A stretch of 64,000 nt of DNA, taken from contig CAXXHB010000003.1 in assembly GCA_963664815.2 (NCBI GenBank), positions 2,336,001-2,400,000 on the forward strand, read 5' to 3'. The translations under genes and the position numbers were made by a program. The DNA is from Spirochaetota bacterium (GTDB lineage: Bacteria > Spirochaetota > UBA4802 > UBA5550). A model generated the notes under the pieces. That model was given only the letters and a program-made list of their open reading frames with translations, made no database searches and was not told the origin of the DNA. This document shows, piece after piece, positions 3,935-14,884 of this stretch (position 1 is its first letter; each line of letters starts with the position of its first letter).

Positions 3935-6900
3935 TCAATTCTCATAGCTTCTGTACATACGATAAACCTTTTCAAATTTTTCAGAGATCGTTGTCATCAT
4001 AAACACTATTGCCATTGGTATTGCCAGCATAACAAGATATGCCGCAATAACCGCTGTACCGTCAGGAAATTTCTCTATTAGCCCGGGGATTAATCCGCCA
4101 GCCGCATATATCTTCTCACTCCCCGGAATCATAGAAGCCGCCCTGTGTCCGAAGGCAACCAGAACAGGGAATAAAACAGGTAATACAAAAATATACAGTA
4201 TCTGCCCCTCAAACCTGTTCAGCGTATTCACCAGTTTAATCCTGTAATTATAAAATGAACCACAGATTATCATCAGAGTATATGCAATAAAAAAATGTGA
4301 AAGTAAAAAAGCTATAAATCCAAGAAGTATCGGTGATAATGAAATCAATCCGGTAATCCTGCTTACGATATCAAAAGAGAAGAACAGCATCAGAATCGTT
4401 ATCCCTTTTATGGCCGATCCTGTTACACTATTTAACAGGTGCCGTATTTTTAAACCTTTCCCGGGATCAAGAATGGATGCTGTATCATTAAACTTTTCCC
4501 TCTTTGCATAGCAATACGCGGTTTCTCCATCCGGGTCTGCAAGCATTATATCAGCCCCGTATTTAATCAGCATCCTTACTATTCCATTATGACCATCTCC
4601 GGCGGCAAGCATAAGCGGAGTACATTCATCAACAGTGGTAAAAACATTTACCCTTGCACCTTTTTTAAGCAACAATTCCACGATTTCGGGTGAAGATTCC
4701 CTTTCTGTGATTTTGGAATGCTGTAATATGGCCCCCATAAGCGGAGTTATGCCATGTTCTTCCCCTCCATTGATATCAACTCCTGCATCTATAAGAGTTT
4801 TTACAGTCTCAAGCGCCTCCCCCTTTTCATCATTTCGTAAAGCATAGTGGAGCAGATTACAGCCATCTTCCAGAATGATCTTCGGATCAGCGCCCTTTTC
4901 AAGCAGAAGTTTAACAATAGTATTCTGTGATTCTGCTGTTGCTGTTTCATCAGGTGATCCCATAAGAAGAAGCTGCAGCGGCGCGTATTCTCTATCTTCC
5001 TCTTTCTGAGGAAGATTCGGATCAGCTCCTCTGTCAAGGAGCATGGAAGCAATTTCAACATTTCTCCAGCATGCAGCAAGACCCAGAGGAATCTGGCCAT
5101 TCAGGGCAGGACTGTTTACATCAGCGCCGTTGTCCAGGAGTATAGATGCCATTTTTTTATTGCCGGTCAGTATGGAACAATTAAGCGGAGTGGTGTCAAA
5201 ATCGAGAAGTTCAGGATGTGCATTCCCGTTGACCGGAAGGCCCTGAGAAATATAGAATTCCATAAGATCAATCCTGTTCCCACAGGCAATAATACAGGCA
5301 TCTTCAAGCCATTTATTATCATTCCATAAAAACAGAACATCACGGCAATTTCTGAATGGAAACATTTTCAGTACTGTAAAGCGCGAAACAGGATGCATGT
5401 TCATAAGACTGTATGTATCATTAATGATGTTTCTCTTTTCAAGCCATACCAGGAGTTTCGAATCGTCAGTCATTATCCCGCTGATAATCTCCTGCCGTAT
5501 TTCAGGATCTGTTTCCAGCGCCAATTCCTCAGGACTGTAGTAATATTTACCGAGTAGTTTTATCCGCCCTTCACCGTTACTCTGAAGACTAAGAATTACC
5601 GTGTTGAGGGCTCTCTCTTCTGTAATCGCGTCTGAATCAAAGAGATCCCAGAAAGAATCAGCAACGGTTTTCCCGTTTTCTCCGCCAACGGCTTCAAGAT
5701 AAAGATAAAACGGCGACAGGGGGTTTTTAAGCTCCTCCTGGTAATAGATATTGTCCTGATGTGTCAACTCGTCAATTTTAACCATGTCATGAGCTTCAGC
5801 CTCAAGCGCATCCCCCAGTTCCTCGGCAGTAGTACACAACCTGCCCTTATGAGAGATAAATGGTTTTCCCGGATCCAGAGTATATATGGCACGTGTAAGC
5901 CCCGCATTTCTTTCATCACTGCCACTGTATAATTCGATAATTTTCTCCATTTCAGTTGAAAGGGCCATATCATTTGCTTTTTCAAGCCATTCCTTGATTT
6001 TCCCCATATACAGATAATCTGCGCCGCGTTCCGGATGCTTTTCAAGAAGCACTGCTAGTTCTGCAGGGGTTGAGAATGTTTCCGTTGAACTGAATGACCG
6101 CTGTTCATAGGGCCGCAGTGTCGAATTGTAGCTGACTGTCAGTTTTTCTCCTGCAATCCATTTTTTTATTTCACTGTACCCCCACCTCTCTTTCGGAAGT
6201 GGGTTTATAAGTCCTTTGATAAGTACAGCAAGATCAGGGTCCATGCCTCCCGGAAATTCAACTGTTTTATCCCGCACCATTGCAGATCTTATTGCGTCGG
6301 GGATCCCCCTGAATGGTTTTTCTCCAAGCCAGAGATGATACATCGTTATCCCGAAAGCAAAATAATCGGCTGCCTTCCCGGCCATAACCTCCGTCTGGTT
6401 TCCAAACCTCATCAGTTCTGGTGCGGCATACTCTTTCGTACCGTTAGCCCTTACAATTGCCTCACCGGTTCCGTTTTTCATCAGGCTGGAAATACCAAAA
6501 TCCGCCAGCACTACAGATGATCTTGTCTGATCTGTAAAATACACATTTTCCGGTTTCAAATCCTGGTATATTATACCGAGTTCATCATGCAGAACACGCA
6601 GACCCTCGGCAATATTTCCTGCCAGCTTTTTGAGCTGAACAATATTGCTTAACGGTCCAATTTCACGAAGATAACTGTCAAGAGGCCCTCCTGAAGCATA
6701 ATCCATTATTTCAAAATCACGTTCTTCAAACTGTCCAAAATCATGTATTCCTATAATCATTCCCGAACGATCAGATCTGATTTTGCTTATAACATCTTCC
6801 GGAAATTTATATCCCTTCCTGTAATGTTTCATTACAAGAGGTTTCCCACCAAGCTCAATTTCATATATTATTGCCTCACCGGAGGAAATGCTGATAATTC

Positions 6901-7255
6901 TTTTTATTATATAGTTTATTCCATTCAGTTGTACAGTTTTCCCCGGTTCAAAAATTTCATCTCCCTCTGTCTGTTTATGCAATAATACCGACTGGCTGTT
7001 CATTATTCTGATGGTTTCCGCATCCTGCTGGGTATCACCTCCGGCTGCGGATGTAATTTTTATTGTTTCAGCGCTGTTATTATCAATACATACAGTTGAA
7101 TCTGCCGAATCTGCAGATTTTTGTTCATCCAGCCTTACTGTCGGCTGGTTTATATCATTGATCCTTACGGTTGCTTCTGCGGAATCATCAGCTTTTATAT
7201 CATCAATCCTTAACGTCGCATTATTAATTCTTACTGTTTTATTATTTTCACTCAT
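3935..7255 (-). CDS. Hanks-type Ser/Thr protein kinase with N-terminal TxxI repeat tail, ankyrin repeats and C-terminal TM helices
   Basis: Kinase motifs LVMKHY, YQDLKPEN, LADFG, GTKEYAAPE, DYFAFG. About 6-7 ankyrin repeats (TPLNCS..GN...LLDNGADVN; TPLMLAAGDGH..LIKYGAD). About 4 hydrophobic helices at the C-terminus. Confidence 0.92.
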   Translation of the reverse strand: MSENNKTVRINNATLRIDDIKADDSAEATVRINDINQPTVRLDEQKSADSADSTVCIDNNSAETIKITSAAGGDTQQDAETIRIMNSQSVLLHKQTEGDEIFEPGKTVQLNGINYIIKRIISISSGEAIIYEIELGGKPLVMKHYRKGYKFPEDVISKIRSDRSGMIIGIHDFGQFEERDFEIMDYASGGPLDSYLREIGPLSNIVQLKKLAGNIAEGLRVLHDELGIIYQDLKPENVYFTDQTRSSVVLADFGISSLMKNGTGEAIVRANGTKEYAAPELMRFGNQTEVMAGKAADYFAFGITMYHLWLGEKPFRGIPDAIRSAMVRDKTVEFPGGMDPDLAVLIKGLINPLPKERWGYSEIKKWIAGEKLTVSYNSTLRPYEQRSFSSTETFSTPAELAVLLEKHPERGADYLYMGKIKEWLEKANDMALSTEMEKIIELYSGSDERNAGLTRAIYTLDPGKPFISHKGRLCTTAEELGDALEAEAHDMVKIDELTHQDNIYYQEELKNPLSPFYLYLEAVGGENGKTVADSFWDLFDSDAITEERALNTVILSLQSNGEGRIKLLGKYYYSPEELALETDPEIRQEIISGIMTDDSKLLVWLEKRNIINDTYSLMNMHPVSRFTVLKMFPFRNCRDVLFLWNDNKWLEDACIIACGNRIDLMEFYISQGLPVNGNAHPELLDFDTTPLNCSILTGNKKMASILLDNGADVNSPALNGQIPLGLAACWRNVEIASMLLDRGADPNLPQKEEDREYAPLQLLLMGSPDETATAESQNTIVKLLLEKGADPKIILEDGCNLLHYALRNDEKGEALETVKTLIDAGVDINGGEEHGITPLMGAILQHSKITERESSPEIVELLLKKGARVNVFTTVDECTPLMLAAGDGHNGIVRMLIKYGADIMLADPDGETAYCYAKREKFNDTASILDPGKGLKIRHLLNSVTGSAIKGITILMLFFSFDIVSRITGLISLSPILLGFIAFLLSHFFIAYTLMIICGSFYNYRIKLVNTLNRFEGQILYIFVLPVLFPVLVAFGHRAASMIPGSEKIYAAGGLIPGLIEKFPDGTAVIAAYLVMLAIPMAIVFMMTTISEKFEKVYRMYRSYEN

Positions 7256-8081: not shown

Positions 8082-8807
8082 TTATACCTCCTGTATCGAT
8101 GCAATAATTACCGATATATTATCTTTACCACCCCCTGACTCAGCTGCAGAGACCAGTGCTTCCAGCGGACAGGGATTTGTTTTAAGTATATCTTCAATTT
8201 CATCAGTATGTACAATGTCATGCAGCCCGTCGCTTGAAAGTAAAATAATATCAGTTGATGATAGTCCCACATCTATCGGAGTAAACTCAAGAAACATTTT
8301 ACCACCTCCGCCGAATGAATTGGTTATTATATTTGACGGGGCATCGGGCATGCTCCCTGACTCCCTGAGAGAATGATCCATTGTCAGTCGTTTCAACAAT
8401 CCATGGCTGAAAAGCCAAAGTCTTGAATCACCCGCGTGAAAACGAAAAGCTTTACCCCGATAAAAAAGAATCCCAACCAATGTAGACCCGCTATTCTTTG
8501 GCACTTCCATGTGAGTTTCTTCGGCAAAAGTCCTGAAAACCTCAGCAATCTCATCGTCGGAAAGGTCACCCGGAATACCATGCATGAAATACAAGAGCCT
8601 TTCCAATACCATGGCGCTCGCTTCTTCGCCATTCTCAAGCCCCCCCATTCCATCAGCAACCGCAAGTACAAATGGTTTATCATTTTTATTAATAATTTCA
8701 GCTGAATATCTCCCGTCACGTAAAAGCTTATCGTCAACAAGTATCATATCTTCATTACTGGAGCGTACAAGACCGATATCACAGATTGCGGATACTGAAA
8801 TGCGCAT
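8082..8807 (-). CDS. PP2C/PPM-family Ser/Thr phosphatase (PrpC/Stp1-like)
   Basis: DIGLVRSSNED, AVADGMGG, GSTL, HAGDSR, LLSSDGL and GGKDNIS motifs. Confidence 0.95.
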   Translation of the reverse strand: MRISVSAICDIGLVRSSNEDMILVDDKLLRDGRYSAEIINKNDKPFVLAVADGMGGLENGEEASAMVLERLLYFMHGIPGDLSDDEIAEVFRTFAEETHMEVPKNSGSTLVGILFYRGKAFRFHAGDSRLWLFSHGLLKRLTMDHSLRESGSMPDAPSNIITNSFGGGGKMFLEFTPIDVGLSSTDIILLSSDGLHDIVHTDEIEDILKTNPCPLEALVSAAESGGGKDNISVIIASIQEV

Positions 8808-8809
8808 AA

Positions 8810-9382
8810 TCAGATTCTGGCAGTCGCGTTTTCAGATACTGCTATTTCTACACTAAAATCAATATCAGCTATTCTGAGGGTTGAACCGTTATTTACAGTA
8901 CCGGCTTTATTCGGGACAAGTTTAACCTTGTTAATATAAGTGCCATTGGTCGACCCTGTATCTGAAACAGTCCATATGCTGTCATTATATTCAATTTTAA
9001 TATGACTCCCGGACACCTGCGGAAACCGGCTGAATATTTCAGCAAACGGGCCTGATTTACGTCCAATAACATCTCCATGTGAAGGTGTTATATCTATTCC
9101 ATGCGTTTTACTGTAAAGCCTGAGCTTAAATGGCTGCAACTGCTTAGATTTATCTCCATGATCAGTAGTACCAGAAGATACTGCAGACATTTGCTGTACA
9201 GGAATTGTTTCCGTGCCAGTATTCACTTCATGACCAGGTTTAATCATCACCTGCCCGTCAAAGATACATCTTTTCCCCTTGCCCGGCCTTCCGCAGAGAG
9301 AACACAATAATATCTCTCCGCCACATTGGTCACAGTATATCGAATCATCATCTATTGTTTCCCTGCAATAAGGGCAGTTCAT
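8810..9382 (-). CDS. Double zinc-ribbon plus FHA domain protein
   Basis: CPYC/CDQC/CSLC at the N-terminus. FHA pThr-binding motifs IGR, VSGSH and GSTNGT. C-terminus is ...ENATARI. Confidence 0.92.
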   Translation of the reverse strand: MNCPYCRETIDDDSIYCDQCGGEILLCSLCGRPGKGKRCIFDGQVMIKPGHEVNTGTETIPVQQMSAVSSGTTDHGDKSKQLQPFKLRLYSKTHGIDITPSHGDVIGRKSGPFAEIFSRFPQVSGSHIKIEYNDSIWTVSDTGSTNGTYINKVKLVPNKAGTVNNGSTLRIADIDFSVEIAVSENATARI

Positions 9383-9405: not shown

Positions 9406-11958
9406 CTATCCTGTCACAGTACGGTCAAGATCCTCGGTACGCATTATCCTGATCTCTCTTTTCAGAATCTCATCTTCCACTCCCCTGTCCTGCATCCCGA
9501 TTATGCGGCTGGAGAGTTTTTCTCTTGTCTTTTCAAAAACCTGCCGGACTGTCCTTGCATTAGCGAATGTAGCGCTTTTACCCGAATGAATCTCTTTCAT
9601 TCTTTCCCTGAGCGTTGCTTCAAATCCGTCAGCATATTCAATTTTTTTACTCTTTGCCATGGAATTGAATATTTCAACCATTTCATCCGGAGTGTAATCC
9701 TCGAATGTAATGAAATTAGTGAAACGCGATTTAAATCCGGAGTTTGATTCAATGAACTCATCCATCTCACTTTTATATCCGGCTGCGATACATACGAACT
9801 TACCCCTGTCATCCTCCAGACGCTTAACAAGGGTGTCAACAGCCTCTTTGCCATACTGGTCACCAGCCCCCTGATTCAGCGAATATGCCTCATCTATAAA
9901 AAGTATACCACCCATTGCGCTGTCACATGCGGAATTAACAAGGGGCGGAGTCTGCCCCATATGCGTACCTACAAGCTTCCCGCGGTCCACCTCAACCCGG
10001 TTGTTTGAAGGAAGCATTCCGATTCCCTTAAAAACATCTCCAAGAATACGGGCAACAGTAGTTTTACCGGTACCCGGATTCCCATAAAAAATAAAATGTT
10101 TGGAGACTGCATCCTCCTCCCCCGAAATTTTACCCGCACGGATTGTATTTATTATTGCATTCACTGCTTCTTTAACCGACGCAAGACCTGTAAGTTCATT
10201 AAGCTCTTTCAAGGCATCGTCAACGGTTACAGCCTTTGCCGATGTAGTAAGAGGTATATCTGCCGCAGTTATGGTAAGTATATCTTTTGTGTTATATGCT
10301 TTACCTTCATCTGCCGATTTAGCCAGGCGGTCTGACTGATTGCGCCTGGCATCTTCAAACAGATTGCGCGCTTCACGGCCATTGGCAAAATCTTTCGTTT
10401 TTCTTGAGCAGCGGTCTTTAAAAAATAAAAGAACATTTTCTGCCGCATTTTCTTCTACTATATATTTCTGCTGCCTGGCTTCAATTTTAAATATTTCAAC
10501 AAGTTCTTCCGGATTGTAATCTTCAAGATGAAAACGTTTATTAAACCTGCTTTTAAGACCATCATTCGCCGAGATAAATTTATCCATAGGCTCTTTATAT
10601 CCGGCGGCGACAACCACGAATTTATCTCTGTCGTCCTCCATACGCTTGAGCAGAGCCTCAATAGCCTCAACTCCGAAATCGTTTTCACCACCCTTGGCAA
10701 GGGTATATGCCTCATCGATGAATAACACCCCCCCCATTGCCTGATCACAGAGTGCATTAGTCTGCGGAGCTGTCTGTGCAATATAACCGGCCACCATTTT
10801 ACTCCGATCAACTTCTATTACATGTCCTGTTTCAAGTACGCCCAGCCCTTCAAGTATGCTTCCGAGAAGACGTGCTACCTTTGTTTTACCTGTACCAGGA
10901 TTACCTGTGATGGTAAAATGGTTTACCGGTTTTTTAATTTCTGTCCCGCTGGCTGCCATATCCTGAACATTTTTCATCTGATTAAACAGACTTCGTATCT
11001 CTGCTTTAATGTTTTCCATACCGATAACAGCATCAAGTTCGGCCATTATTTCATCAAGACTTCTCTTCTTTTCAACGGGAAGCGTTACATCCTCTTCAAT
11101 TATAATTTTATCCGCTACTTTCCTTTTAAAATAAGAGGACATAATTTCACGGGCCTCTTTCAACGCGAGGTAACCGTTATGAGCACTGATCTCTGAATCT
11201 GACCTCTTCAGATCTTTTATCAAATATCTGAATCTTTTATTGATCTGATCTTTTACATCTCCGGAAACAATAAGTCCCTGCCTGTCAAGCTCATGACAGA
11301 CAATATCAGAACACTGCGCCGGTGTGTAATCCGGGACAAAAAAGATATTCTGGAAACGACCTGTAATATTTTTATTCTCCGGTTTTTTTACAAATTCCCT
11401 GAACCCGAAAGGAAGCCCGGCAAGTATTACAACAGGATCATTTTCAGATGAATCTATCTGTGTTATAAGAGTTCCAAAGCCGGATGATGCCTTTCCATCT
11501 GAATCAACAAGTTTATGTGCGTTATCAATGAAGAGTACTCCCCCTTTTGCAGCATTAAATATTTTTACAAAGTCAGATGAACCCATTTTTTCGAGTGAAC
11601 TGCCATCCAATACTTCCGGCGTCTTTTTTGTTATCACTCCATAAGATTCAAGAATAGAGGTAATAAGATTTCCTGTAAGCGTTTTTGCAGTACCTGAATT
11701 TCCGATAATAATTGTATTGTACGGTATTCTGAAAGAAGCGCCATTTCTCTTCATACCATCAAGGACATCACTCAGTCCATTCAGTTCTCTTTTAATCTCA
11801 TCAAGACCTACCAGACCATCAAGCAATCCGGGTACACCTGAGGAAATTATGTTATCACCAGCAGCCTGCATCACCGATACAAGACCTTTTCCGCAGTATC
11901 TGCAGAATTTTGCCGTACCGCGGTTATCCTTGCCGCAGTTGCCGCATTTTATAGACAT
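9406..11958 (-). CDS. Triple-module CbbX/SpoVK/EccA-type AAA+ ATPase with N-terminal zinc ribbon
   Basis: Three AAA modules: GNSGTAKT/VLFIDNAH, GNPGTGKT/VLFIDEAY, GNPGTGKT/ILFIDEAY, with SRF and FANGR/FANAR motifs. GGAGG precedes MSIKCGNC at 11958 (ORF track start 12051 overlaps the upstream gene). Confidence 0.92.
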   Translation of the reverse strand: MSIKCGNCGKDNRGTAKFCRYCGKGLVSVMQAAGDNIISSGVPGLLDGLVGLDEIKRELNGLSDVLDGMKRNGASFRIPYNTIIIGNSGTAKTLTGNLITSILESYGVITKKTPEVLDGSSLEKMGSSDFVKIFNAAKGGVLFIDNAHKLVDSDGKASSGFGTLITQIDSSENDPVVILAGLPFGFREFVKKPENKNITGRFQNIFFVPDYTPAQCSDIVCHELDRQGLIVSGDVKDQINKRFRYLIKDLKRSDSEISAHNGYLALKEAREIMSSYFKRKVADKIIIEEDVTLPVEKKRSLDEIMAELDAVIGMENIKAEIRSLFNQMKNVQDMAASGTEIKKPVNHFTITGNPGTGKTKVARLLGSILEGLGVLETGHVIEVDRSKMVAGYIAQTAPQTNALCDQAMGGVLFIDEAYTLAKGGENDFGVEAIEALLKRMEDDRDKFVVVAAGYKEPMDKFISANDGLKSRFNKRFHLEDYNPEELVEIFKIEARQQKYIVEENAAENVLLFFKDRCSRKTKDFANGREARNLFEDARRNQSDRLAKSADEGKAYNTKDILTITAADIPLTTSAKAVTVDDALKELNELTGLASVKEAVNAIINTIRAGKISGEEDAVSKHFIFYGNPGTGKTTVARILGDVFKGIGMLPSNNRVEVDRGKLVGTHMGQTPPLVNSACDSAMGGILFIDEAYSLNQGAGDQYGKEAVDTLVKRLEDDRGKFVCIAAGYKSEMDEFIESNSGFKSRFTNFITFEDYTPDEMVEIFNSMAKSKKIEYADGFEATLRERMKEIHSGKSATFANARTVRQVFEKTREKLSSRIIGMQDRGVEDEILKREIRIMRTEDLDRTVTG

Positions 11959-11971
11959 ATCGGAATCCTCC

Positions 11972-13003
11972 TTAACTTGGCCCTTTAATATTAACATCAA
12001 TTGTGCCGCCAGTATACCAATAACCGCCAAGTTTCGGTTCATCACAGGCATTAGGTCCTTCCGGACAGAGATGTACAGTATTTGTAAAATTGCAAAGCCA
12101 GCCTGTTACTTCCGGAGGCTTCATCGCCATATGATAACGCCGTGCCTCCTGCTGAGTGGTAAACTTTTTATTTCTGAATTTAAGCATTGCTTCATTAGCC
12201 GCCTTCTCCGCAGCGCTTTTTTTCTTCTCAAGTTCGGCTTTCTTCATCATTAACGCGTCAAATTCAGCATCTTTTACTGCACGTATTCGTTGCTCTTCCA
12301 ACTGTTCGTTACGTGCAGCTTCCTCTTCTTTAATTTTTTCGGCCTTTGCTATTGTCTTCTCAGACCCCAGAATTTCCTTAATCTGTGCATCTGAAAAAAA
12401 GGATGGTTTCACCGGTGACACCGCTGCAATTGAAGGAGATTGTCCCTCTTTATTTTTTCCCGCTTCTTCAATAAGACGTTCAATTTCCGACAGTTCTCTT
12501 TCAAGAGAAATTGATTCCCGTACTGTCTCTATAAAATTTTTTGCTTCTGGATCTTTCTGCGCAGCAACTGCTGCTGAACGCGCGTATTCTGTCAGAGGTT
12601 TATTACATTTTGAACAGAAATCAAATATGCTCTTTGTGCCGCAGGAGGGACATACTATACCATTTTTATCATTACCGCATTCCGGGCAAAACGAAGCATC
12701 ATCAGGAATTTCAGCATAACAGAATTTACATCTGCCGTCAAGAAGCCATTCTCCGCAGAATGTACAGATATCTGCTCCCGGATTAACCGGTTTACCACAA
12801 TGAGGACAAAAAAGCGGTGCATTCAACATCGAGCCGCATTCCAGACAGTACTCAGCTTCAGGAGGATTCACGGTACCACATGAAACGCATTTTATTCCAT
12901 CTTCAACAGACTGCTGATTGGATATCTCTTTTTGGAAAGCCTCTTCATGCTGTTGTTTTGCAAATGAAGACTGCTTCTCTTTGCCCTGATAATTACCGGT
13001 CAT
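11972..13003 (-). CDS. Multi zinc-ribbon (DZR) plus coiled-coil protein; first gene of the operon
   Basis: Eight CxxC motifs (CVSC, CLEC, CPHC, CTFC, CKFC, CPEC, CPSC, CSKC), a coiled coil, and a C-terminal Cys/His motif WLCNF...HLC...AC. Confidence 0.85.
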   Translation of the reverse strand: MTGNYQGKEKQSSFAKQQHEEAFQKEISNQQSVEDGIKCVSCGTVNPPEAEYCLECGSMLNAPLFCPHCGKPVNPGADICTFCGEWLLDGRCKFCYAEIPDDASFCPECGNDKNGIVCPSCGTKSIFDFCSKCNKPLTEYARSAAVAAQKDPEAKNFIETVRESISLERELSEIERLIEEAGKNKEGQSPSIAAVSPVKPSFFSDAQIKEILGSEKTIAKAEKIKEEEAARNEQLEEQRIRAVKDAEFDALMMKKAELEKKKSAAEKAANEAMLKFRNKKFTTQQEARRYHMAMKPPEVTGWLCNFTNTVHLCPEGPNACDEPKLGGYWYTGGTIDVNIKGPS

Positions 13004-13456: not shown

Positions 13457-14884
13457 ATGGACGATCTTTTCCCAGATAACGAATTACTTTCACTGCTGAA
13501 CAGCGTAATAAACGGAGATCAGTCATCCGGTAAAAGCCAACCTCAGCGTTTTATTCCTGACAACAAGCCATCACAGATACATAACCTTGATATTCTTCGA
13601 ACTTCTGTTTTTACAGACGACGATCTGGAATCCTTCACCCGTGCCCATGATAAAACTGCAGCCGAAATCGGCAAAATCATCGGCGGGATGGTTGTCACTG
13701 CAGACTTTTCAGGAGCGATTCTTACAGGAGAATTTCTGCGCAGCGTGCCTGCCGATTCTTTGACATATATTCTCGCTTTTCAATCCGGCCGTTATGACGG
13801 TTTTATTGAAACTGACCAACCACTGTGTGAATTTTTAAACGATGAAATTGTAAATGAAATAGTTTCAGTTATAAATCAATTCCCTGTAATAAATATGGAA
13901 CTGAATTGTACTCTGTCAGGGAAAACAGAGGGTCCTTTTCTCCAGAACCATGACAAAACAGTATTCTGTAAAATGTCAGCAAAATACGGTGATAAAGTCT
14001 TCGGCATAAATATCGGCTACGATATAAACCTGGCTGCAAAAATGCTGAATATTTCCCTGCCTCATGATATTCCGCTAAGTAGAGATACTTTCTATATCGG
14101 TTCCGCAGGAATATCAAAAATTTTACAGCTTATTCCCGGGAAAAGTATATCTTTGCCTGAAATCTGCCCGACTGTGTATCACACCCGTATAGAAAATACG
14201 GAAAAAAACATGGATTACACAACACTTAGTACAGATCCCTTTATGGAAAACATAAGGTTTCCTCTGACCGTTTCTTTCAGTCATTCTGTTTCAGATATTT
14301 ATATGACTGAAGGGGAACCAGCAAAACTCTATGCTGGTTCCAACCTGATTGCTTCAGTTGTAATCCGAAAAAAAAACGGCCTTCTCACAGCATCTGTAAC
14401 AGATCAAAATATAGACCACGAATACGATAATGCCGGGCAAAACACACTGATCCCTGTTTATGCGGAGTTAGGGAGATGCATATATACTGATGAATCGTTT
14501 TCTATCGGACAGATTCTCCATCTTTACAACGATCGTTTCCCGCATATCAGGCTTTATGCAGGATCAAATCTCTATATGGGGGAATGTGAGGCCATATCCT
14601 GTGACAGCAGTTTCGCAGCAAGAATACTTGATACCTCACCGATAGAACAAAATCCCTCTGAAAGAGGAAACCTCCGTTTTGTTCTTGCAGTAAGAAATTT
14701 TCCTTTACAGGATATATCATCCATTGAAAAGTACGACAACCTTATCTTTAACGGACCTTTTACCGGAGATATTCTGATTTATAATGGTAATCGTCAGGTC
14801 GCCTGGGGGCAGATATCCGAACAAAACAATGATTATTGCATACGTGTTATTTCAATTCCTGAAGACAAGGGTGATCATTTATGA
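13457..14884 (+). CDS. Divergent FliM/FliY-like protein with repeated SpoA (FliN-like) segments
   Basis: N-terminal DNELLSLLNSV and FTDDDLESFTRAHD echo the FliM N-terminus. C-terminal repeats such as IPVYAELGR...SIGQILHL...IRLYAG and DILIYNGNRQVAWGQISEQNNDYCIRV fit the SpoA pattern. Confidence 0.5.
   Translation: MDDLFPDNELLSLLNSVINGDQSSGKSQPQRFIPDNKPSQIHNLDILRTSVFTDDDLESFTRAHDKTAAEIGKIIGGMVVTADFSGAILTGEFLRSVPADSLTYILAFQSGRYDGFIETDQPLCEFLNDEIVNEIVSVINQFPVINMELNCTLSGKTEGPFLQNHDKTVFCKMSAKYGDKVFGINIGYDINLAAKMLNISLPHDIPLSRDTFYIGSAGISKILQLIPGKSISLPEICPTVYHTRIENTEKNMDYTTLSTDPFMENIRFPLTVSFSHSVSDIYMTEGEPAKLYAGSNLIASVVIRKKNGLLTASVTDQNIDHEYDNAGQNTLIPVYAELGRCIYTDESFSIGQILHLYNDRFPHIRLYAGSNLYMGECEAISCDSSFAARILDTSPIEQNPSERGNLRFVLAVRNFPLQDISSIEKYDNLIFNGPFTGDILIYNGNRQVAWGQISEQNNDYCIRVISIPEDKGDHL

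Follow-up and report, generated by a model that had tools for sequence, protein, structure and literature searches.

A terminal T-x-R motif shared by a zinc ribbon-FHA adaptor and the kinase of its gene cassette in a Spirochaetota bacterium

In the genome of a Spirochaetota bacterium (GenBank assembly GCA_963664815.2, lineage UBA4802; UBA5550), a window of 64,000 nucleotides on contig CAXXHB010000003.1 (positions 2,336,001 to 2,400,000) contains the gene for a small adaptor protein with a zinc ribbon and an FHA domain, here called the ZnR-FHA adaptor (P0001, 190 amino acids; window positions 8810..9382, minus strand). The protein end reads ...SENATARI, and its last four residues, T187-A188-R189-I190 (codons at 8813..8824, minus strand; the TGA stop is at 8810-8812), form the motif T-x-R-phi, where phi stands for a hydrophobic residue. 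This tail reads as one unit of a repeat array found at the N-terminus of the Ser/Thr kinase from the same gene cassette, ended exactly after the third residue following the threonine (+3). A tentative interpretation of the sequence comparisons, in which our confidence falls somewhat short of even, is that the kinase phosphorylates the adaptor tail, which would then be read in trans, in the FHA pocket of a second adaptor molecule.

In the well-studied cases of FHA domains that read a site of their own protein (GarA/OdhI, DgcB, TIFA and MDC1) this site is always N-terminal, and the novelty here is the C-terminal position. If the interpretation is true, a site at the extreme C-terminus and near to the FHA domain would force intermolecular reading, and this would amount to a simple rule for phosphorylation-driven assembly in bacteria. 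The motif also predicts a substrate consensus for the kinase, G/S-T-x-R-phi-D/N/E, and it singles out T187 as the residue whose mutation should separate adaptor recruitment from self-association. The tail thereby offers a concrete handle on a five-gene cassette. Literature searches, which did not cover subscription journals, gave no description of this cassette or of a C-terminal FHA self-motif, and in the available parts of Kaur et al. 2020 the passages on FHA, PP2C and zinc-ribbon proteins concern other systems (PMC7159879).

A protein ending in T-x-R-[ILVM] is unremarkable within a single genome: 5 of the 5932 open reading frames (ORFs) of at least 100 amino acids in this genome end in this way, compared to 3.7 expected by composition. 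The significance of the tail comes from its conservation. A preliminary description of the region, made from the letters of the sequence and a list of its reading frames, had raised the question of whether a terminal T-x-R-I is kept in orthologous ZnR-FHA proteins, and this is found to be the case. The 84 nearest homologues were drawn from a collection of 5.8 billion proteins and are 29-54% identical to the adaptor in the best local alignment; 76 of them have the exact ending T-x-[RK]-[ILVM]. Six of the eight exceptions are tailless, and the other two are P0009 (...TVRS) and P0072 (...ITRL). Pooling the homologues with the ORFs of 160 related loci and removing duplicates gives 220 unique family proteins, of which 120 have the strict ending and two more have it with one or two extra residues. 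Within the 120 strict tails, glycine is found at -1 in 113 and arginine at +2 in 118, and the last residue is I (71 tails), L (35) or V (14). The same ending is present in just 5 of 3371 non-FHA ORFs of the related loci.

A less redundant set came from 1.84 billion cluster representatives, among which a search with the family profile gave 223 clusters (50% identity) at E <= 1e-30. From the best 150 of these 223 clusters, 142 representatives with a length of at most 300 amino acids were aligned, and 52 of them reach at least four residues beyond the last FHA strand. The strict motif ends 34 of these extended representatives, 6 have the motif plus one or two residues, 8 have a decayed tail and 4 have none. 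Where the family has a C-terminal extension, it is nearly always the T-x-R-phi motif. The eight decayed tails (TMRS, TVQL, TVKA, TVRDNA, TVRF, TKRGET, TQHL and TIVL) all keep the threonine, which is thus the most persistent residue of the tail, as expected of a phospho-acceptor. The underlying codons vary considerably. In 58 distinct tail-coding sequences the threonine is encoded by ACA (38), ACT (8), ACC (6) and ACG (6), the arginine by codons of both families (CGA 23, AGA 17, AGG 9, CGG 6, CGT 3), and the glycine at -1 by three different codons. The many synonymous codons for threonine and arginine show that selection acts on the peptide, and the tail is a short linear motif under selection at the protein level.

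The partner in which the motif recurs is a kinase of 1106 amino acids (3935..7255, minus strand; from translation and a profile match), encoded two genes downstream of the adaptor. It is the sole Pkinase match in the 5.2-Mb genome, and for this reason the pairing of kinase and adaptor is not in doubt. It starts with a T-x-R array, the kinase domain comes next, and after this are ankyrin repeats and a C-terminal region that is hydrophobic. The array, read from the translation, covers residues 6-85 (7001..7240, minus strand) and includes the copies KTVRI, ATLRI, ATVRI, PTVRL, ETIKI and ETIRI, that is, six T-x-[RK]-[IL] copies within the first 85 residues, besides a degenerate STVCI. The preliminary description had compared the adaptor end to NNATLRI and AEATVRI of the kinase; these are found at residues 11-17 and 26-32, and the match of T187-A-R-I190 to the kinase consensus holds. 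Searching the genome for clusters of at least three T-x-R-[ILVM] in 60 residues gave the kinase as the only genuine one, the other match being a low-complexity repeat ORF.

The array is not a peculiarity of this one kinase. Related loci contain 112 unique kinases with an intact N-terminus, and 111 of these have at least one T-x-[RK] ahead of the kinase domain, 102 at least two. In total 386 such motifs are observed in this region compared to 85.8 from shuffles, and their density is 4.98 per 100 amino acids before the kinase domain versus 0.48 in the remainder of the protein. In tailed loci, meaning loci where the FHA protein has the tail, the kinase repeat has the form G/S-T-x-R-[M/L/I]-[D/N/E], with I, L, M or V at +3 in 102 of 115 motifs; at +4, D or E is found in 75 and N in 17 of the 115. 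Flavours of the repeat in other groups include GTARID in Burkholderiales and KTIRMDD in Melioribacteraceae. Many of the kinases start with MSTER[M/L/T], itself a copy of the motif. With regard to the catalytic domain of the kinase studied here, the translation shows that the VMK lysine, the DLKPEN catalytic loop and the DFG motif are kept. YQD replaces HRD, making this a non-RD kinase, and SSGEA is found where the Gly-rich loop is expected, with SGEA kept in relatives; the Pfam match covers profile positions 59-258 only.

Comparing the two proteins, the tail carboxylate would be placed where the kinase repeats have an acidic residue at +4, and this would account for 120 of the 122 tails ending exactly at +3. 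Individual loci add to this. In one of them (L006), the tail carries one extra residue (GTVRLS), and in the repeats of the kinase from this locus GTVRL or GTVRI is followed by S, G, E or N, not Asp. In another, on a metagenome contig (L129), the FHA tail is absent (the protein ends in ...WRNNL) and the kinase is without T-x-[RK], having just KTLLV and KTIQV; this looks like a joint loss of the arginine-containing motif on both partners. The residue at +1 of the tail equals a +1 residue of the locus's own kinase in 10 of 35 loci compared to 5.6 when shuffled (p 0.013; related loci are non-independent). These two loci and the matching at +1 are the kind of sequence evidence that would fit a shared reader or writer.

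The adaptor itself has an N-terminal Cys-rich zinc ribbon, a linker and an FHA domain, followed by the tail. The zinc ribbon (residues 3-43, or 3-34 when delimited more narrowly; 9254..9376, minus strand; assigned from Pfam and alignments) gives Pfam matches to DZR and Zn_Ribbon_1, both under cut-off. Its cysteines C27, C30 and C39 are invariant in 148 family sequences, and C3, C6, C17 and C20 are invariant in an alignment of 33 sequences and present in at least 90% of the 148. The linker (residues 44-84; 9131..9253, minus strand; from the AlphaFold2 model and alignment) differs between family members both in how long it is and in its sequence, as seen in the 33-sequence alignment. Its residues 57-76 have a predicted local distance difference test (pLDDT) score below 50. 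The FHA beta-sandwich (residues 85-182; 8837..9130, minus strand) is supported by Pfam, alignments, AlphaFold2 and Foldseek, with PF00498 matching residues 105-171 at 46.2 bits against a cut-off of 20.7. An intact FHA pocket (GR, SxxH, STNGT) had been described before, and the 33- and 148-sequence alignments agree with this. The named residues are present as G107-R108, S124-x-x-H127 and S144-T-N-G-T148; in both alignments G107, S124, H127, S144 and N146 are invariant and R108 is found in at least 90%. The intact phosphothreonine pocket, the dedicated kinase and PP2C phosphatase and the invariant threonine within a motif shared with the kinase make a phospho-acceptor and FHA ligand the most economical reading of the tail.

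The AlphaFold2 model of the adaptor was made from the 148-row alignment and has a mean pLDDT of 87.2, with 10-residue blocks over 81-180 at 90-98. In this model the final FHA strand comprises residues 174-182 and residues 183-190 are coil. This leaves a spacer of four residues, S-E-N-A, from the end of the strand to T187; across family representatives the spacer has a median of 6 and a range of 2-9 aligned residues, which is a lower bound. A Foldseek search with the model gave 121 matches in the PDB at E <= 0.001, and every listed one is an FHA domain. Near the top of this list are the FHA domains of MDC1, DgcB and OdhI/GarA, several of which were solved with their own phospho-tails. Each chain of the adaptor has one FHA domain and one terminal motif.

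In the mechanism that we favour, the kinase would first autophosphorylate its N-terminal array, which looks disordered, and the ZnR-FHA adaptor would be recruited to it through the phosphothreonine pocket. Binding of FHA adaptors to kinase-proximal phosphothreonine sites is established for mycobacterial kinases. The kinase would then phosphorylate the adaptor tail, since the shared consensus would suit the same enzyme. The phosphorylated tail, only about four residues past the last strand (two to nine in the family), would miss the pocket of its own molecule and be read by that of a second adaptor. Reading in trans could either give rise to head-to-tail chains seeded on the multivalent kinase, or lead to adaptors being competed off the kinase as a form of feedback. 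The PP2C phosphatase would reset the phosphorylation state, and the adjacent triple AAA+ protein may dismantle the assemblies. Phosphorylation, FHA binding, the trans geometry and the roles of PP2C and AAA+ are what we infer from the gene content and sequences described here. A more elaborate version is also conceivable, a TIFA-type signalosome in which the phosphorylated array of the membrane kinase nucleates head-to-tail polymers of the adaptor (one pocket and one C-terminal ligand per molecule), the carboxylate replaces the Asp at +4, the zinc ribbons arrayed on the polymer recruit the other zinc-ribbon proteins of the cassette, and PP2C together with the triple CbbX-type AAA+ protein, threading the free tail, takes the polymers apart; taken as a whole we consider this scheme unlikely.

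It is worth noting that several observations weigh against tail reading by the FHA pocket, some of them from the distribution of the motif. A FastTree phylogeny was built from 148 family members with the tail columns removed; as an unrooted tree it does not tell gains of the tail from losses. On one side of this tree are all 58 rows from Bacteroidales (Prevotellaceae and Bacteroidaceae), and the tail is absent from every one of them. In the kinase motif of Bacteroidales, T-[LIVM]-R-[P/T/A], the hydrophobic position is +1, and a motif of this kind is no classical FHA ligand of the pT+3 hydrophobic type. The other side comprises 90 sequences, of which 78 have the tail and 12 do not, and the cassette as a whole can therefore do without it. 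The untailed rows here belong to Melioribacteraceae/Calditrichaceae, to a long-branched group of Sphaerotilaceae/Comamonadaceae and to scattered single losses, and the untailed rows of Sphaerotilaceae/Comamonadaceae and of Melioribacteraceae have kinases with T-x-R-[I/M/V] repeats all the same. At least seven state changes between presence and absence are needed on the tree, or four when well-supported branches alone are counted. The tail thus marks a clade and is limited to one of the two halves of the family, and it is the T-x-R repeats of the kinase that run through the whole of it. This goes beyond the preliminary description, as the family-wide invariant is the T-x-R array of the kinase and not the isoleucine at +3.

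Other points against it concern the fine detail of the motif. The identity of the +3 residue in the tail matches the kinase of the same locus in 6 of 35 cases compared to 7.0 on shuffling, that is, no co-variation is seen between the two, and one tailed clade (L127-L141) has Asp at +3 of the kinase motif. The third base of the last tail codon is fixed by the start of the PP2C gene in 41 of 58 tailed loci, where the FHA stop overlaps the PP2C start (ATGA), and NTA codons predominate at this position. Finally, a terminal G-T-x-R-phi can persist without this kinase/FHA pair. The example is a second, unrelated protein of 351 amino acids with a signal peptide and a transmembrane segment that ends in NNGTVRL and is encoded elsewhere in the genome (G000:C3:4036149-4037204, equal to L167:2150-3205, minus strand), in a Bat-type operon with the order MoxR AAA_3, DUF58, the NNGTVRL protein and two vWA proteins. 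Orthologues of this protein from the same genus end in ENGTVRI or ENGTPGI, and a search of 7 genomes of that genus did not turn up the cassette. Of 86 homologues, 19 end in T-x-[RK]-[ILVM] when up to two trailing residues are allowed, and many others in T-x-G-[ILV]; outside the genus the tail decays to x-x-[R/G]-[V/I/L] and the threonine is not fixed. A proteome scan had suggested this Bat-operon protein as a further client of the kinase and FHA protein, and this was rejected, as its tail persists where the cassette is not found.

The trans geometry was also put to a structure prediction. A complex of two copies of residues 80-190, predicted from a 78-row alignment and modelled without the phosphate on the threonine, was run twice; each time the interface score (ipSAE, interaction prediction score from aligned errors) was 0.00, with 0.42 as the mark, and this counts neither for nor against reading in trans.

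The strongest of the competing explanations, still an unlikely one in our view, is that the tail serves the kinase as a substrate or docking motif and is not read by this FHA pocket; it might then mark the adaptor for a different reader, alter the behaviour of the zinc ribbon or tether the adaptor to the substrate-binding groove of the kinase. The motif equals the presumed autophosphorylation consensus of the kinase. Its core is T-x-R, and arginine at +2 is not known as a classical FHA determinant; the Bacteroidales kinase motif, moreover, has no hydrophobic residue at +3. There are also other proteins to consider. The genome encodes one further FHA protein, away from the cassette (G000:C3:135820-137253; L161:295-1728). 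This protein of 477 amino acids has a signal peptide and combines a vWA domain and a transmembrane segment with its FHA domain; it does not itself end in T-x-R, and phosphothreonine tails could be read by it instead. The Bat-operon protein bears the same terminal motif as the adaptor. Against this stands the fact that the sole dedicated phosphothreonine reader of the cassette is the tailed protein itself. A preference for a hydrophobic residue at pT+3 has been reported for several bacterial FHA domains, and the +3 residues found here (I, L or V in 120 of 120 tails; I, L, M or V in 102 of 115 kinase motifs) fit this preference.

Less probable again is that the tail is a handle for the AAA+ protein, where the adaptor tail and the kinase array termini would be engaged in the pore of a CbbX/SpoVK/EccA-type AAA+ protein and remodelled or extracted, possibly with phosphorylation as a gate. 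The AAA+ gene is immediately upstream of the adaptor gene, and none of the 83 related loci that reach 15 kb or more lacks it. Its second AAA+ module aligns to CbbX (3zuh/3syk, E 1.1e-43) and retains a Tyr aligned to the pore-loop-1 Tyr of CbbX (position 114 counted along the 3syk alignment), and the motif sits at the extreme terminus of both proteins. There is also a precedent: according to the available text of PMC5437159, CbbX, the activase of red-type Rubisco, acts by transient threading of the RbcL C-terminal peptide, and its action is abolished once 2-4 C-terminal residues are removed. However, an invariant threonine beside a kinase, a phosphatase and a phosphothreonine reader is more simply seen as a phosphorylation site, the copies in the kinase are internal repeats and not at the terminus alone, and Bacteroidales and other clades have the AAA+ protein but no FHA tail.

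The preliminary description had offered built-in autoinhibition as one option, in the manner of GarA (Mycobacterium) and OdhI (Corynebacterium), where the phosphorylated tail folds into the pocket of its own molecule and switches the adaptor off. This is not supported by the model, and we regard it as very improbable. In its favour, binding of the own tail is established for GarA/OdhI and, in the available text of PMC6733907, is one proposed option for DgcB; the FHA domains of OdhI, GarA and DgcB are among the nearest structural matches of the adaptor; and the longest spacers, up to nine aligned residues (a lower bound) in some representatives, might just reach. On the other hand, only four residues separate the strand end at residue 182 from T187 in the AlphaFold2 model, and the family median is six. 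The termini of FHA domains sit on the face opposite the peptide-binding loops. Known cis binders have N-terminal tails and far longer spacers, as in DgcB, where about 17 residues lie between pT14 and the domain start according to the accessible part of PMC6733907. The short spacer, the placement of the C-terminus and the length of the DgcB spacer led to the rejection of cis closure and to trans reading being favoured; judged from the model, head-to-tail intermolecular contacts, the other option in the preliminary description, plausibly fit the anatomy of the adaptor better.

That the tail is a functionless by-product of nucleotide constraint from the overlapping PP2C start region was rejected on codon usage and seems barely credible: the ATGA overlap in tailed loci does force a third-base A, with NTA codons dominating, and the upstream Gly-Gly codons could, as a matter of speculation, serve as a ribosome-binding site, yet threonine, arginine and glycine use three to five synonymous codons each (with both arginine families), the overlap sets one base only while no residue other than I, L or V is found at the end, loci with a gap of 2-15 bases between FHA stop and PP2C start, including the one studied here, still carry the motif, and the same peptide motif is found in the kinase, where there is no such overlap.

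Trans reading of the tail by a second adaptor can be compared with several known systems. The best analogue is the eukaryotic protein TIFA, which likewise has one FHA domain and one phosphothreonine site of its own; its pThr9 binds the FHA domain of another dimer and thereby drives head-to-tail oligomerisation, as described in the available part of PMC7083832. The adaptor has one pocket, one own site and, as modelled, a spacer too short for cis binding. Unlike the adaptor, TIFA has its site at the N-terminus, is an intrinsic dimer and depends on an unrelated kinase, ALPK1, and oligomerisation of the adaptor is only predicted by this analogy. MDC1 is also eukaryotic and is a top Foldseek match (3uot/3unn). 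It too has an FHA domain that reads a terminal phospho-motif of the same protein, and with its own pThr4 it reportedly forms head-to-tail dimers. It differs in having an N-terminal site of the SQ/TQ type that is phosphorylated by the ATM kinase.

Among bacterial proteins, GarA and OdhI are small FHA adaptors with an own threonine acceptor motif that is phosphorylated by a Hanks kinase and read by their own type of FHA domain, and they are among both the closest FHA folds and the closest sequence-profile matches of the adaptor. In GarA/OdhI, however, the site is N-terminal on a long tail, binding is in cis, and the result is that binding to metabolic enzymes is turned off. The adaptor has its site at the extreme C-terminus, four residues past the domain, has an added zinc ribbon and is found in a different operon; an N-terminal acceptor tail reaching its own pocket is not present. 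It is not an OdhI equivalog either, with 24.2 bits for the NCBIfam model NF041660 against a cut-off of 200, and the equivalog models for OdhI, TagH and FhaB all score far under their cut-offs. DgcB from Bdellovibrio, an FHA-GGDEF protein, is a top match both in the sequence-profile search and in Foldseek (6hc0/6hc1). Its FHA domain binds a phosphopeptide of its own protein, and intramolecular as well as intermolecular modes are discussed in the available text (PMC6733907). It differs from the adaptor in its N-terminal tail (pT14), its fused diguanylate cyclase output, an unidentified kinase and the lack of a repeated kinase motif.

The sole solved protein with the same architecture of zinc finger and FHA domain is ArnA from Sulfolobus acidocaldarius. 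Here the similarity is remote, with the family profile matching the ArnA chains 5a8i_A (E 1.2e-5) and 8s05_C (1.4e-5) over profile positions 2-179. According to the accessible part of PMC12852372, ArnA works alongside kinases and a phosphatase, contact with a partner is made by the zinc finger as well as by the FHA domain, and ArnA reads phosphothreonine sites on a separate vWA partner, ArnB; no self-tail is reported in that part. None of the six cassette proteins has a vWA domain, and the partners in the 160 related loci are AAA+, PP2C, kinase and zinc-ribbon proteins. The threonine-phosphorylation pathway of the type VI secretion system (PpkA, PppA, Fha1/TagH, ClpV) similarly combines a membrane Hanks kinase, a PP2C, an FHA adaptor and an AAA+ protein at one locus. 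In the cassette, however, the AAA+ protein is of the SpoVK/CbbX type and not ClpV, the adaptor scores 26.4 bits against the TagH model TIGR03354 with its cut-off of 120.25, and no structural genes of this secretion system were seen among the scanned neighbours. By analogy, then, the adaptor would work most like TIFA and, among bacterial proteins, like GarA/OdhI and DgcB; it is a member of none of these families.

Following the example of GarA, the linker between zinc ribbon and FHA domain was considered as an alternative motif site in untailed members. This was rejected, as T-x-[RK] is not enriched in the linker overall: 19 are observed in 88 untailed proteins compared to 15.2 expected, and tailed proteins have 9 compared to 14.3 expected. 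Single untailed proteins do have a copy of the local kinase motif in the linker and look suggestive, namely L066 (ERTIRPQ, with a kinase that has T-phi-R-P repeats), L165 (G011; ATTRMD) and P0088 (GATRRL).

The genes of the cassette are tightly packed on the minus strand in the order P0006, triple AAA+, ZnR-FHA, PP2C, P0004 and kinase. P0006 is a multi-zinc-ribbon, coiled-coil protein (11972..13003, minus strand). Next comes the triple AAA+ protein (9406..12051, minus strand), which has a zinc ribbon and whose three modules belong to the SpoVK/EccA/CbbX family. The PP2C phosphatase (241 amino acids; 8082..8807, minus strand) has a Stp1/IreP-type match at E 1.8e-32, which is under the equivalog cut-off, and in this locus its start codon lies two bases past the FHA stop. 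The ATGA overlap elsewhere and the two-base spacing here imply translational coupling of the FHA reader and the PP2C eraser. P0004 (7268..8104, minus strand) is a protein with a zinc ribbon and a transmembrane segment that has no family match; it is an accessory member, found in just 9 of the 160 related loci. The core of the cassette consists of five genes, for the multi-zinc-ribbon protein, a triple or quadruple AAA+ protein, the ZnR-FHA adaptor, PP2C and the T-x-R-array kinase. In the 83 related loci of at least 15 kb, AAA+ and FHA genes are found in all 83, the multi-zinc-ribbon protein and the kinase in 81 each, and PP2C in 77.

Hosts of the cassette include spirochaete and termite-gut metagenome lineages, Prevotellaceae, Bacteroidaceae, Melioribacteraceae, Calditrichaceae and some Burkholderiales. 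Among the relatives of the genome studied here it is patchy: searches recovered the adaptor from none of 7 genomes of the same genus and from 2 of 36 of the same family, and the two same-family homologues are without the C-terminal tail. A known anti-phage defence system was rejected as an explanation for the cassette, since PADLOC gave no coherent system; the FHA protein and P0004 had no match there, and the others had generic kinase, AAA+ or PP2C matches to differing systems.

Some minor observations can be added on the AAA+ gene and on the surroundings of the cassette. Read by eye, the first AAA+ module has FIDNAH where modules 2 and 3 have FIDEAY, and its Walker B motif looks degenerate; the third module has a His at the position of the pore-loop Tyr of module 2 and CbbX. 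The annotated start of this ORF overlaps the upstream gene by 80 bases. Translation more likely begins at the Met in position 32 of the protein (around 11958), just ahead of the zinc ribbon, which would remove the overlap. The cassette is flanked by genes for a FliN-like protein, a protein with a metallo-beta-lactamase fold, an aminotransferase and a phosphoesterase. The FliN-like protein is a divergently oriented neighbour at 13457-14884, with a FliN-like C-terminal domain (PF01052, 25.9 bits).

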